Part shown: positions 3,627-8,182 of the stretch, piece after piece | Layout of the letters: the number at the start of each line of letters is the position of its first letter | Position numbering within the stretch: position 1 is the first letter of the stretch | Origin: a virus | Taxonomy: Duplodnaviria; Heunggongvirae; Uroviricota; Caudoviricetes | Reading direction: 5' to 3' (one strand) | IMG/VR virus record: IMGVR_UViG_2671180556_000014 | Length of the DNA: 31,500 nt | Position numbers and translations under genes: made by a program | Notes under the pieces: model-generated | Database searches by the model: none | Told to the model about the DNA's origin: nothing | What the model saw: the letters and a program-made list of their open reading frames with translations, nothing else

Positions 3627-5895
3627 AGCCTCCGGGCATTTTGTCCCTCCGTCAGCATTTGCCGCAGGCACCGGTGAGATGTTTACCGGTGCTTATGCAT
3701 GGAACGCGCCACGCGAGGCCGTCGGGCGCGAAAGACCCCTTACACGTGACGAGATGCGTCAGGTGCAAGGTGTTTTATCCACGATTAACCGCCTGCCTTA
3801 CTTTTTGCGCTCGCTGTTTACTTCACGCTATGACTACATCCGGCGCAATAAAAGCCCGGTACACGGGTTTTATTTCCTCACATCCACTTTTCAGCGTCGT
3901 TTATGGCCGCGCATTGAACGTGTGAATCAGCGCCATGAAATGAACACCGACGCGTCGTTGCTGTTTCTGGCAGAGCGTGACCATTATGCGCGTCTGCCGG
4001 GAATGAATGACAAGGAGCTGAAAAAGTTTGCCGCCCGTATCTCATCGCAGCTTTTCATGATGTATGAGGAACTCTGCGATGCATGGGTTGATGCACATGG
4101 TGAAAAAGAATCGCTGTTTACGGATGAGGCGCAGGCTCACCTGTATGGTCATGTTGCTGGCGCTGCACGTGCTTTCAATATTTCCCCGCTCTACTGGAAA
4201 AAATACCGTAAAGGACAGATGACCACGAGGCAGGCATATTCTGCCATTGCCCGCCTGTTTAACGATGAGTGGTGGACTCATCAGCTTAAAGGCCAGCGTA
4301 TGCGCTGGCATGAGGCGTTACTGATAGCTGTCGGGGAGGTCAATAAAGACCGTTCTCCTTATGCCAGTAAACACGCCATTCGTGATGTGCGTGCGCGCCG
4401 CCAGGCAAATCTGGAATTTCTTAAATCGTGTGACCTTGAAAACAGGGAAACCGGCGAGCGCATCGACCTTATCAGTAAGGTGATGGGCAGTATTTCTAAT
4501 CCTGAAATTCGCCGGATGGAGCTGATGAACACCATTGCCGGTATTGAGCGTTACGCCGCCGCAGAGGGTGATGTGGGGATGTTTATCACGCTGACCGCGC
4601 CGTCAAAGTATCACCCGACACGTCAGGTCGGAAAAGGCGAAAGTAAAACCGTTCAGCTTAATCACGGCTGGAACGATGAGGCATTTAATCCAAAGGATGC
4701 GCAGCGTTATCTCTGCCGTATCTGGAGCCTGATGCGCACGGCATTCAAGGATAATGATTTACAGGTCTACGGTTTGCGAGTCGTCGAGCCACACCACGAC
4801 GGAACGCCGCACTGGCATATGATGCTTTTTTGTAATCCACGCCAGCGTAACCAGATTATTGAAATCATGCGTCGCTACGCGCTCAAAGAGGATGGCGACG
4901 AAAGAGGAGCCGCGCGAAACCGTTTTCAGGCAAAACACCTTAACCAGGGCGGTGCTGCGGGGTATATCGCGAAATACATCTCAAAAAACATCGATGGCTA
5001 TGCACTGGATGGTCAGCTCGATAACGATACCGGCAGACCGCTGAAAGACACTGCTGCGGCTGTTACCGCATGGGCGTCAACGTGGCGCATCCCACAATTT
5101 AAAACGGTTGGTCTGCCGACAATGGGGGCTTACCGTGAACTACGCAAATTGCCTCGCGGAGTCAGCATTGCTGATGAGTTTGACGAGCGCGTCGAGGCTG
5201 CACGCGCCGCCGCAGACAGTGGTGATTTTGCGTTGTATATCAGCGCGCAGGGTGGGGCAAATGTCCCGCGCGATTGTCAGACTGTCAGGGTCGCCCGTAG
5301 TCCGTCGGATGAAGTTAACGAGTACGAGGAAGAAGTCGAGAGAGTGGTCGGCATTTACGCGCCGCATCTCGGCGCGCGTCATATTCATATCACCAGAACG
5401 ACGGACTGGCGCATTGTGCCGAAAGTTCCGGTCGTTGAGCCTCTGACTTTAAAAAGCGGCATCGCCGCGCCTCGGAGTCCTGTCAATAACTGTGGAAAGC
5501 TCACCGGTGGTGATACTTCGTTACCGGCTCCCACACCTTCTGAGCACGCCGCAGCAGTGCTTAATCTGGTAGATGACGGTGTTATCGAATGGAATGACCC
5601 GGAGGTCGTGAGGGCGCTCAGAGGTGCATTAAAACACGGCCTGAGAAGACCAAACCGTCAGCAAAGAAACGGAAGCCCGTTAAAACCGCATGAAATAGCG
5701 CCATCGGCCAGACTGACCCGGTCTGAACGATTGCAAATCACCCGTATCCGCGTTGACCTTGCTCAGAACGGTATCAGGCCGCAGCGATGGGAGCTTGAGG
5801 CGCTGGCGCGTGGCGCGACCGTAAATTATGACGGGAAAAAATTCACGTATCCGGTCGCTGATGAGTGGTCGGGATTCTGGCATCAATTTGAGTAA
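3616..5895 (+). CDS. A: Replication initiation protein A (rolling-circle HUH endonuclease), 759 aa
   Basis: ATG at 3616 gives MAVKASGHFVPP...; contains HUH-type motif PHWHMMLF; length close to the 761 aa I recall for P2 A. ORF-track start at 3574 is an upstream extension. Confidence 0.9.
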   Translation: MAVKASGHFVPPSAFAAGTGEMFTGAYAWNAPREAVGRERPLTRDEMRQVQGVLSTINRLPYFLRSLFTSRYDYIRRNKSPVHGFYFLTSTFQRRLWPRIERVNQRHEMNTDASLLFLAERDHYARLPGMNDKELKKFAARISSQLFMMYEELCDAWVDAHGEKESLFTDEAQAHLYGHVAGAARAFNISPLYWKKYRKGQMTTRQAYSAIARLFNDEWWTHQLKGQRMRWHEALLIAVGEVNKDRSPYASKHAIRDVRARRQANLEFLKSCDLENRETGERIDLISKVMGSISNPEIRRMELMNTIAGIERYAAAEGDVGMFITLTAPSKYHPTRQVGKGESKTVQLNHGWNDEAFNPKDAQRYLCRIWSLMRTAFKDNDLQVYGLRVVEPHHDGTPHWHMMLFCNPRQRNQIIEIMRRYALKEDGDERGAARNRFQAKHLNQGGAAGYIAKYISKNIDGYALDGQLDNDTGRPLKDTAAAVTAWASTWRIPQFKTVGLPTMGAYRELRKLPRGVSIADEFDERVEAARAAADSGDFALYISAQGGANVPRDCQTVRVARSPSDEVNEYEEEVERVVGIYAPHLGARHIHITRTTDWRIVPKVPVVEPLTLKSGIAAPRSPVNNCGKLTGGDTSLPAPTPSEHAAAVLNLVDDGVIEWNDPEVVRALRGALKHGLRRPNRQQRNGSPLKPHEIAPSARLTRSERLQITRIRVDLAQNGIRPQRWELEALARGATVNYDGKKFTYPVADEWSGFWHQFE

Positions 5896-6021
5896 GGATC
5901 TCATCTATACAGTATAAGTAGTTTTGACTGTAATTGATTGTTTTTTATATGGTTGCATGCATTAAATCTACGTCAATATCATTATGTTATAATGCATTAC
6001 TTAAAAATGTTGGAGATAAAA

Positions 6022-6213
6022 ATGTTAAAGCCTGCAGATGTTGTTTGTTTGAAAAGCGGTGGATTTAAAATGACTGTATCTGACTCTACTGAAACTCATG
6101 CTAAATGTATTTGGCATGATAAAGAAGGAGTTTTGCACGAGGAGTCATTCTCCATTGATTTACTGGAAATAGCAGAGAGTAAAAGTGGTATGCTTTGTCG
6201 TCCACGTAAGTGA
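6022..6213 (+). CDS. Small protein with DUF2158/YodC-like motif (63 aa from ATG 6022)
   Basis: Motif VVCLKSGGFKMTV followed by CIWHD resembles the YodC/DUF2158 small-protein family (from memory). GGAG 6 nt upstream of ATG 6022; upstream in-frame starts at 5938 (TTG, 91 aa) or 5992 are possible. AT-rich. Confidence 0.45.
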   Translation: MLKPADVVCLKSGGFKMTVSDSTETHAKCIWHDKEGVLHEESFSIDLLEIAESKSGMLCRPRK

Positions 6214-6240
6214 ATCATAATAAAATTCACGGGGGAAAGT

Positions 6241-6921
6241 ATGAAACAATACAGCGAATTAGAAAACAATGTTAAGAGATTCATTGTTGAGCATGAAAAA
6301 GGGATTTCTATTGATGATATTCATCATAAGTTCCGGATGAAGGATGGTCAGAATCGCAAGATGGCAGATTATCTTATTGATAATAAAAAGATAATTTTGG
6401 AGATGAAAAGTCTTTTTTCTGACAGGGTCAAGAATGTCAATGATAAACTGAATGAGTTGGTTAAAACTGATAGTTGGCTTGCAAAAAACTGGCATGGTGC
6501 TATTCATTTAGAAGAGTTGATAAAAAGACACCCAGACTCAAAGCGATTTAGAAATGATATAATGAACTTTGCTTATGAAAATATTAAAACAAAGATAGTT
6601 AAGGAAGCTAATAAGCAAATAAATGCAACAAAGGATGTTTTGGATTTAAATGACTCGATTGGCGGGTTGATTTTGTTAAATGATAATGTCTTTTCACATG
6701 AGTCTAATTATTTGTCAGATGAAATATTATATTTGCTAGGCACAAAGAGATATTCGAGTGTTGAGTTTGTGGTTTATATTGCAAAATTGATTGATAAACA
6801 GGTTGATGTTTGTGTGCTACTTGACAGTCAATCTAAAAATAAAAATTATATTGAATGGTATATGAATAATGTTTTTTTATTGAACTGGGCGTCTTTTAAT
6901 AAATATGCAATAAAGATGTAG
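6241..6921 (+). CDS. Hypothetical protein, 226 aa, AT-rich accessory cargo (function unknown)
   Basis: Long ORF in strongly AT-rich DNA with lysine/asparagine-rich composition; ATG preceded by GGGGGAAAG; sits in the A-to-cos accessory slot. No catalytic motif recognised. Confidence 0.55.
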   Translation: MKQYSELENNVKRFIVEHEKGISIDDIHHKFRMKDGQNRKMADYLIDNKKIILEMKSLFSDRVKNVNDKLNELVKTDSWLAKNWHGAIHLEELIKRHPDSKRFRNDIMNFAYENIKTKIVKEANKQINATKDVLDLNDSIGGLILLNDNVFSHESNYLSDEILYLLGTKRYSSVEFVVYIAKLIDKQVDVCVLLDSQSKNKNYIEWYMNNVFLLNWASFNKYAIKM

Positions 6922-7240
6922 TGGTGTGGATGGATATGAAATGAGTCAACCAAGATGCACCTTGGTCAGTAATCTCATGTGAGATACCACATATAACACC
7001 AAAAGTGTCAGGTTGATGGCCATTGTTCACCGTTTACAGCAGATTATGGTCAACGAAAATCTGACGCCTGACGAGCTGGTCGGGTGTGCCGAAATAGTCT
7101 GGGATAATTACGGGCGGTTTAACTATATCGGTCAGTCCAGAGTTGCGCCACCACCACGCAGACGATAGAGAACGCCGCCAGTCGTGAAACTTGTTTTCAG
7201 GCTGGCGGGGTTGAACAACGAGCGAAGTGAGGCGTTAGCA

Positions 7241-8182
7241 TTAAGTTAATTTTAATGAATGGTACTCTATCGAGCTGATTGTAGATGCGATATATTTACG
7301 ATCATTTACAGAGAGTATTGCCGCTAGTAGACGACATACCAGAGCCTGCATTTGTAGCAATATATCGCTACCATATTGACAATCATTGATACTAGAGAAA
7401 CCAAGCGGTTGCCCATTAAAAATGGCTTCATGAAAATTATCATTGCGTATAACTGAAACATTACATTCATCTGTTGCCCATGACGGGATTTTTACACCGT
7501 AATTTTCGCACATCCAATACACTCTATTTTGATGAGATGGTTTTTTCTCTTTAATGACTTTATCCCTTTTATCCCATGCTATAGCAAAACAGCAATCAAG
7601 AGCCATATAAAGATACTGGAATTTCTCAAAGGAAAGGTATAGTGGGTTATGTGACAGGAATAGGGAGTGTATCACCGCAGCTATTCTTTTAATGGAGCGA
7701 TCATCTTTTTGTTTGTCTTTTATATAGTTAAGTGCTAGCTCTATTACTTCTTTTTCAGAGCATCCAACGAGAATAAAGTCGGTTAACTTAGTGGGCTTGA
7801 TAGTGGTTGCATCAAGAAAACCAGCGTCAGTGGTTGTCAATCTTATACCCTTGAAAAAAGAGAGGCACCACACAACAAAGTTGAGAGTTTCTAACGAGGA
7901 TGTGTTTTTTAATTTTAGTGTGTGCGTTTTGGGCATGCCGAATACTCGGTAACTATAAGGCATTGTGCATGTGTCACCATTAAGGTTATATACCTTTCGA
8001 TTCCCAGGGTATATCCAACCATTAACAACGTTTTTATCATTGTTAATACGTTCCACGTTCTCAATAAGACCGGGTAAAGTACGCAAAGAAAATTGTTCAG
8101 TCTCAATGTTAACTTCTACTGGATAGTATCCAAACTCCGAAATAATCTCATTTGGTTGCTGTTCGTCAACTTCACCTTGCAT
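7241..8182 (-). CDS. Hypothetical protein, 313 aa, AT-rich accessory cargo (function unknown)
   Basis: Long minus-strand ORF in AT-rich DNA immediately left of cos, convergent with the 226-aa gene. No Walker, HUH or other motif recognised. Confidence 0.55.
   Translation of the reverse strand: MQGEVDEQQPNEIISEFGYYPVEVNIETEQFSLRTLPGLIENVERINNDKNVVNGWIYPGNRKVYNLNGDTCTMPYSYRVFGMPKTHTLKLKNTSSLETLNFVVWCLSFFKGIRLTTTDAGFLDATTIKPTKLTDFILVGCSEKEVIELALNYIKDKQKDDRSIKRIAAVIHSLFLSHNPLYLSFEKFQYLYMALDCCFAIAWDKRDKVIKEKKPSHQNRVYWMCENYGVKIPSWATDECNVSVIRNDNFHEAIFNGQPLGFSSINDCQYGSDILLQMQALVCRLLAAILSVNDRKYIASTISSIEYHSLKLT

Follow-up and report, generated by a model that had tools for sequence, protein, structure and literature searches.

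A two-gene cassette in a P2-like Escherichia coli prophage encodes a DUF2158/YodC-family small protein and a putative PD-(D/E)xK nuclease of an undescribed family

The 31,500-nucleotide (nt) stretch of DNA analyzed here in its entirety, referred to as the window (IMG/VR record IMGVR_UViG_2671180556_000014), is a P2-like (Peduovirus) prophage of Escherichia coli. Between gpA and the portal gene, within the gpA-gpQ hotspot of P2, it carries an exchangeable cassette (moron) of low guanine-cytosine (GC) content, which spans 1,102 base pairs (bp; 5879..6980) and contains a promoter-like element and two genes only. These are orf63 (6022..6213, + strand), which encodes a DUF2158/YodC-family small protein of 63 amino acids (aa), and orf226 (6241..6921, + strand), whose 226-aa product belongs to an undescribed family and is a putative effector with a PD-(D/E)xK-type nuclease signature. 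We see roughly an even chance (probability about 0.5) that the cassette serves in conflicts between mobile elements, with orf226 acting as a nuclease and orf63 as its accessory. The defence-rich variable cargo of the P2 locus is already known, and this particular arrangement has been catalogued before. New are the recognition of a nuclease signature in the orf226 family and of how widely this family is distributed, the exact boundaries of the cassette, and the finding that the DUF2158 partner is lineage-specific.

The product of orf226 is probably a PD-(D/E)xK nuclease, an assignment that rests mainly on an invariant motif. A profile search of 1.84 billion representatives recovered 348 relatives of orf226 at E ≤ 0.001, with lengths of about 230, 335, 450, and 600–740 aa. 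The close family is small (26 clusters, Enterobacterales only), and all relatives with a source name, which stem from Serratia, Shewanella, Vibrio, Photobacterium, Acinetobacter, and Achromobacter, are annotated as hypothetical proteins. Conservation was counted among the aligned residues of 149 family representatives that were no more than 50% identical to one another. D43 (144/144), E54 (146/146), K56 (146/146), and Q126 (144/144) were invariant, and D25 (138/141) and N147 (138/142) were nearly so. The D43...E54-M-K56 signature was also invariant in the alignment of the broad family (A2). Read from the sequence, the A-D-(x10)-E-x-K pattern of orf226 is that of the classical PD-(D/E)xK nuclease hairpin. 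The codons of this putative catalytic hairpin are located at 6367..6408 on the + strand (D43, 6367-6369; E54, 6400-6402; K56, 6406-6408). An earlier reading of the window, made from the sequence only, had described the 226-aa protein as rich in lysine and asparagine, which its composition bears out (K 11.9%, N 10.2%), and as devoid of a catalytic signature, which is contradicted by the invariance of these residues across the family.

In the AlphaFold2 model of orf226 (predicted local distance difference test score, pLDDT, 82; predicted template modelling score, pTM, 0.79), D43 is placed just ahead of strand 44-46, and E54 and K56 lie within strand 51-57. A helical insertion of ~75 residues (about 58-134) separates the ExK strand from the next core strand, and the last long helix of this insertion bears Q126. 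Matches to PF18742 (REase_DpnII-MboI) were observed in 6 of 32 family members, all below threshold (best E 0.0011), and in member P0033 the match spans residues 26-74, which is the motif-bearing stretch. At threshold, orf226 matched nothing in Pfam, NCBIfam, or PADLOC. Sequence-profile searches of the PDB with the close (A1) and broad (A2) families yielded chance matches only, for example to shikimate kinase and asparaginase, and Foldseek detected nothing significant for the orf226 model in the PDB. Compared with described PD-(D/E)xK nucleases (BsmI, NucC, CdiA-CT EC869, and PF18742), orf226 thus stands apart by the lack of a threshold profile match to any curated family, by the ~75-residue helical insertion after the ExK strand, and by the lack of a cyclic-nucleotide sensor, toxin-delivery, or methyltransferase partner; its activity is putative.

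Some members of the orf226 family are fused to an Mrr_cat nuclease domain. These long relatives of 560-740 aa (P0048, P0052, P0053, P0061, P0068, P0117, and P0135; metagenomic) start with an Mrr_cat restriction-nuclease domain at the N terminus, followed by an uncharacterised middle part and the orf226-like domain, and in some of them the C terminus is extended by ~100 aa and carries a SEC-C zinc motif. The ~335-aa relatives have the C-terminal extension only. This architecture is undescribed. With hhalign, no relationship was detected between the orf226-family profile and the Mrr_cat N-domains of the fusion relatives (probability 0.4%). In one record (CP030214.1, L014:2626-3237) the orf226 gene was called at 203 instead of 226 aa and is possibly decayed.

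The two genes have an operon-like layout. orf63 extends from the ATG at 6022 to the TGA at 6213, and orf226 from the ATG at 6241 to the TAG at 6921. The Shine-Dalgarno sequence of orf63, GGAG (6012..6015, + strand), is kept in Citrobacter as GTTGGAGA, and that of orf226, GGGGGA (6231-6236), is contained in the intercistronic spacer of 27 nt (6214..6240, + strand). The co-orientation of the open reading frames (ORFs), the length of their spacer, and a ribosome-binding site for each gene, all noted in the sequence-only reading, were therefore recovered with their coordinates. A sequence scan revealed no terminator-like site in the spacer, the RNA structure of which was not significant either (z −0.7 versus shuffled controls), and RNA folding at the 3' end of the cassette did not exceed that of shuffled controls. 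Upstream of orf63, the extended −10 promoter-like element TGTTATAAT (5985..5993, + strand) is a perfect match. It is kept in the Citrobacter loci L016 and L017 as TGATATAAT and TGTTATAAT, respectively, despite coding synonymous divergence (dS) of ≥0.7 there, and, if used as a promoter, it would set the transcription start near 6000. A consensus scan also found a weaker promoter-like site, TTGACT-18-TATGGT, at 5924-5953. With a single conserved extended −10 element, a short spacer, and no internal terminator detected, the operon initially proposed for the pair agrees with the features of the locus.

Both genes are under purifying selection relative to their Citrobacter orthologues, with ratios of nonsynonymous to synonymous divergence (dN/dS) of 0.19 for orf63 and 0.09 for orf226 at dS values of 0.7–1.5. 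For this reason, the small ORF is regarded as a real gene, and together with its Pfam match (see below) this corroborates the earlier view of it as a gene of the DUF2158 family. The annotation of prophage P2-EC67 uses an upstream ATG at 5992, which gives a 73-aa protein. We rejected this start in favour of the 63-aa form, because ATG 5992 is itself part of the conserved −10 element and, in Citrobacter locus L016, does not share the reading frame of orf63.

The boundaries of the cassette were defined by blastn comparison with phage Wphi and Yersinia phage vB_YpM_46. With both phages, ~97% identity extends through the left flank up to position 5878 and returns at position 6981, and nothing is alignable in between. 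The GC content of the cassette is 0.32, whereas gene A has 0.53 and the conserved block downstream 0.51. The left breakpoint (5879-5895) lies inside gene A, 17 nt ahead of its stop codon, so that exchanging the cassette also replaces the C-terminal end of the replication protein. The cassette occupies the gpA-proximal sub-slot of the hotspot, which is the position of gp91 (annotated as similar to P2 orf91) and gp92 in Wphi; in vB_YpM_46 and another P2 record, this slot contains a gene for a 150-aa ASCH/DUF3850 protein. The suggestion that the pair sits in a phage exclusion slot was thus correct insofar as it lies within the variable gpA-gpQ hotspot of P2, but the sub-slot is the gpA-proximal one, and the distal one is filled by another gene, ORF313.

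The gpA-gpQ interval has been described as one anti-phage hotspot of P2-like phages by Rousset et al. 2022 (PMC9122126), whose Table S5A lists the present arrangement as WP_001547483 + WP_023136039 (+ WP_072164333 + WP_032179103). Like other gpA-gpQ cargo (old, tin, DUF4238, 3HP, DprA-PRTase, and others; PMC9122126), the cassette resides in this interval and is short, AT-rich, swappable, and equipped with its own (predicted) promoter. It differs in that the pair is absent from the table of evaluated systems (Table S2, PMC9122126), which contains neither the pair accessions nor the term 'DUF2158', in that it matches no PADLOC model, and in its location in the gpA-proximal instead of the distal sub-slot.

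Of 5,426 complete E. coli genomes, 27 contained both genes, always adjacent, and no genome had one of them alone. The conserved flanking block was present in 434 of these 5,426 genomes. All neighbourhoods of the orf63 protein cluster contain the pair, which was also detected in Citrobacter prophages (75–83% identity), Salmonella loci, metagenomic contigs, and IMG/VR contigs. In the P2-like prophages examined from Escherichia, Salmonella, and Citrobacter, co-occurrence was complete. The cassette is missing from nearly all sequenced P2-like phages, and tblastn with orf226 returned no match in the PLSDB plasmids and two among phage records. At orf226-family loci outside the P2 lineage, no DUF2158 ORF was found with either narrow or broad hidden Markov models. 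A recurring association of the two genes across genomes therefore holds for all P2-like carriers, but does not extend to the orf226 relatives beyond this lineage.

These relatives occur as solo genes in diverse elements. Pantoea ananatis IncFII-type plasmids carry a relative of 64% identity, for which DNA homology starts and stops exactly at the coding sequence. In a Serratia fonticola prophage (L019:4327-6539), a relative of 40% identity is located 33 nt downstream of a gene for a cI-like repressor (HTH_3 + Peptidase_S24) and converges on a neighbouring DUF4238 gene, and a BamHI-type restriction-modification pair is found nearby. DUF4238 is a defence family that was validated by Rousset et al. 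2022 and protects against T7 (PMC9122126). The S. fonticola locus looks like a defence cluster expressed during lysogeny. Further solo relatives (42% identity) were detected in a Brenneria island and in IMG/VR viral contigs. On the chromosome of Shewanella sp. GutCb (L043:5526-6672), a relative of 28% identity lies behind a co-oriented gene for a 128-aa DUF6966 protein, located 88 nt upstream, and DUF6966 may be another small partner, distinct from DUF2158. In Vibrio sp. ED002 (CP080238.1, L049:1-12693), a relative of 26% identity at 6001-6693 constitutes a single-gene integron cassette. The chromosomal integron array of this strain has 16 attC-like repeats spaced ~500-1,100 bp apart, and its further cassettes include genes for GIY-YIG, DUF4145, Mrr_cat-like, and SLATT_5 proteins. 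Defence genes are reportedly abundant in integron cassettes (10.1101/2024.07.02.601686).

The affiliation of orf63 with DUF2158 (PF09926) is supported by a Pfam match of 33.1 bits (gathering cut-off 22.3; E 4.7e-08), in which residues 6-46 align to profile positions 4-48 of 50. The protein contains the motif KSGGFKMTV, from which (as KSGG.KMTV) membership in the DUF2158/YodC family had been proposed, rightly so in view of the passed Pfam threshold. Profile searches thus placed orf63 in a curated family, which was not achieved for orf226. With a profile of orf63 and three relatives, 325 proteins were recovered at E ≤ 0.001, and among the 120 matches listed every Pfam-annotated one is assigned to PF09926. 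orf63 shares the family-invariant residues D6, V7, V8, L10, K11, S12, M17, C29, W31, and F43 (44-sequence alignment), and its size fits the family range of about 55-75 aa. In the predicted structure, orf63 forms a five-stranded SH3/KOW-like beta-barrel with a basic C-terminal tail of low confidence, and the model resembles Hpy99I. Scans of orf63 with PADLOC (PADLOC-DB v2.0.0) and NCBIfam gave no match. Some variants of orf63 have an apparent frameshift or truncation (P0028, P0031).

Other DUF2158 genes are solitary and chromosomal with varied, unrelated neighbours such as lipocalin and smpB, whereas orf63 is prophage cargo in an operon with a putative nuclease gene. YodC of Salmonella is a translated, RpoS-dependent small protein (PMC5437024). 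No functional study was found in the literature on DUF2158, YodC, P2-EC67, or the accessions of the pair.

In the explanation that we favour, 5879-6980 would be a horizontally acquired two-gene cassette under its own promoter in the gpA-proximal part of the gpA-gpQ hotspot. orf226 would be the effector, a member of an unnamed family with the restriction-endonuclease fold (PD-(D/E)xK), and would most likely cut DNA in a metal-dependent manner. Its role most likely lies in mobile-element conflict, in which the prophage would protect its host and hence itself, with the nuclease either attacking superinfecting phage DNA or, once triggered, causing an abortive response. The protein could work without a partner; its relatives are carried singly by other mobile elements. 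orf63 would be a co-transcribed upstream accessory that probably modulates the activity, specificity, or triggering of the nuclease, and would not be an indispensable antidote. Because the pair is confined to P2-like prophages and the relatives elsewhere are solo, orf226 appears to act autonomously as an effector, with orf63 as an accessory restricted to this lineage.

Several observations weigh against this explanation. At threshold, no sequence profile connected the orf226 family with any curated family of nucleases, and PADLOC produced only scattered single matches over 32 family members, with E values above 0.002. Vertical co-inheritance could by itself account for the linkage of the pair within P2-like prophages. 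The carriers of the pair represent one lineage, and colinearity in Citrobacter covers everything between gpA and orf226 (~75% identity). Moreover, the cargo of the gpA-proximal slot elsewhere (orf91-like, ASCH) is of unknown role, which makes the link to defence weaker than for the distal slot, and Rousset et al. saw activity in three of eight additional cloned P2 hotspot systems (PMC9122126).

Among the other explanations considered, it is somewhat unlikely that the cassette contains two independent genes under one promoter, with orf63 as a TutA-like anti-phage or YodC-like stress protein and orf226 as a lone nuclease. Each family is mostly found without the other, and the orf226 coding sequence alone has moved to the Pantoea plasmids. 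YodC of Salmonella is an RpoS-dependent translation product, and the 64-aa TutA, which is homologous to one Hpy99I domain, is reportedly necessary and sufficient for anti-phage activity (Darracq et al., 10.1101/2024.07.02.601686). However, the adjacency, short spacer, and single promoter of the pair were kept through dS values of 0.7–1.5, and the cassette contains nothing else. A possible connection between TutA and DUF2158 is a lead from structural resemblance to Hpy99I. In a comparison with the Toutatis system (TutA/TutB; 10.1101/2024.07.02.601686), orf63 and TutA are both Hpy99I-like, a structural resemblance that may reflect a generic SH3-like fold, and the partner of TutA is a methyltransferase whereas that of orf63 is a putative nuclease.

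We consider it unlikely that orf63 and orf226 make up an undescribed two-component anti-phage system, in which the SH3-like barrel of orf63, structurally akin to the domain of Hpy99I that recognizes DNA and to the autonomous 64-aa defence protein TutA, would serve as the DNA-recognition or trigger subunit and orf226 would represent a new nuclease family. If true, this would provide the first function for the widespread YodC/DUF2158 family.

Still less support exists for a type II toxin-antitoxin or addiction module, in which orf226 would be a toxic nuclease and orf63 a labile antitoxin and autorepressor, with prophage stabilisation or abortive infection as the outcome. The resemblance to such modules consists in a small upstream gene and a larger putative nuclease gene downstream, joined in one operon with a short spacer on a mobile element, and the pair is kept in all P2-like carriers. 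Yet the partner is not conserved across the orf226 family: solo copies of the supposed toxin are common (26–64% identity) and have neither a DUF2158 ORF nor a consistent alternative small partner. As these relatives occur solo in a plasmid, prophages, and an integron cassette, orf226 does not seem to be intrinsically lethal. The predicted SH3/KOW-like fold of orf63 also differs from the ribbon-helix-helix (RHH), helix-turn-helix (HTH), or AbrB folds with which typical type II antitoxins bind DNA, DUF2158 genes are usually solitary and chromosomal, and PADLOC models of toxin-antitoxin type gave no match. An obligate toxin-antitoxin pair is thus unlikely, because the putative toxin is often solo and orf63 lacks an antitoxin-type DNA-binding fold. 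From the regulator/effector or toxin/antitoxin arrangement suggested in the sequence-only reading, orf226 emerges as a credible effector with a nuclease signature, whereas the notion of obligate pairing is weakened by the solo relatives.

A function of orf226 in the phage life cycle or in counter-defence, be it as a lytic-phase nuclease against host or competitor DNA, as a helper in recombination or replication that read-through from the early operon would express, or in anti-restriction, is improbable. The early replication operon (B ... A) immediately precedes the cassette in the same orientation, a scan detected no terminator between gene A and orf63, and related phages fill this slot with genes that do not look like defence genes (orf91-like, ASCH). 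Against such a function, the cassette is dispensable, as it was found in 27 of the 5,426 complete E. coli genomes versus 434 with the conserved flanking block, and hardly any sequenced P2-like phage carries it. It also has its own conserved promoter-like element, and a role of this kind would make no sense for the plasmid and integron relatives.

Least probable of all is that orf226 has a restriction-enzyme-like fold and is not a nuclease (being a DNA-binding or sensor protein instead), or that the fold assignment is wrong, as could be argued from the lack of a significant PDB match by Foldseek, from the failure of profile searches to find a curated family, and from the separate Mrr_cat domain that could supply catalysis in the long members, because D...ExK, along with Q and N, is fully conserved over ~149 diverged representatives, which is the pattern of a catalytic site and not of a scaffold, and the motif maps to what would be the expected beta-hairpin in the model.

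If the favoured mobile-element-conflict cassette indeed protects against phages, it would add a compact system with ~0.9 kb of coding sequence to the defences of the P2 hotspot, and would define a new, unnamed nuclease family of at least 348 clusters at 50% identity. This family ranges over Enterobacterales, Vibrio, Shewanella, Acinetobacter, and Achromobacter, where it occurs in prophages, plasmids, and integron cassettes, and is missed entirely by present annotation and defence-finding tools. If inactive against phages, the cassette would be an ordinary prophage moron. It also offers a concrete route to study the function of the YodC/DUF2158 small proteins.

The wider gene order of the prophage is apparent from strain GN02270, which has an identical locus. 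Its annotation begins with integrase, C, Cox, B, orf80-83, and replication endonuclease A, and continues with the DUF2158 protein, a hypothetical protein, a 51-aa ORF, a reverse-strand hypothetical protein, and the portal, terminase, and capsid genes. ORF73, ORF226, and ORF313 of prophage P2-EC67 (AM157369.1, deposited 2006) are the same three ORFs as orf63, orf226, and ORF313 of the window, and all three are also present in the sequenced phage vB_EcoM-720R8.

Downstream of the cassette, a conserved block of 258 bp (6981..7238; 90–98% identity in P2-like phages, namely P2-type records, Wphi, and vB_YpM_46) splits the two variable slots and may be an anchor for recombination, a region with a regulatory function, or a small gene. 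It contains the 51-aa ORF (7013-7168, phrog_11386), which had no PADLOC match and is named "meiotically up-regulated 80 protein" in RefSeq, in what looks like a spurious annotation transfer. The distal variable slot (7239 to about 8380) is occupied by ORF313 (7241-8182, − strand), a low-GC module (0.37) that is unrelated to the pair and adjoins cos and the portal gene. Judging from the gene order of Wphi, this slot would be the position equivalent to tin/old. ORF313 had no match in Pfam, PADLOC, NCBIfam, or the PDB, and was assigned only to phrog_5937 (unknown function). We also considered the pair and ORF313 as a three-gene 3HP system (Rousset) and rejected this assignment, as a PADLOC match is lacking and ORF313 is independent of the pair. 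ORF313 is present at 98.5% identity in Yersinia phage vB_YpM_46, which has no orf63-orf226 pair, and the Citrobacter prophages combine the pair with other distal genes and lack ORF313. By this distribution, ORF313 appears to be an independent module and a defence candidate of its own.

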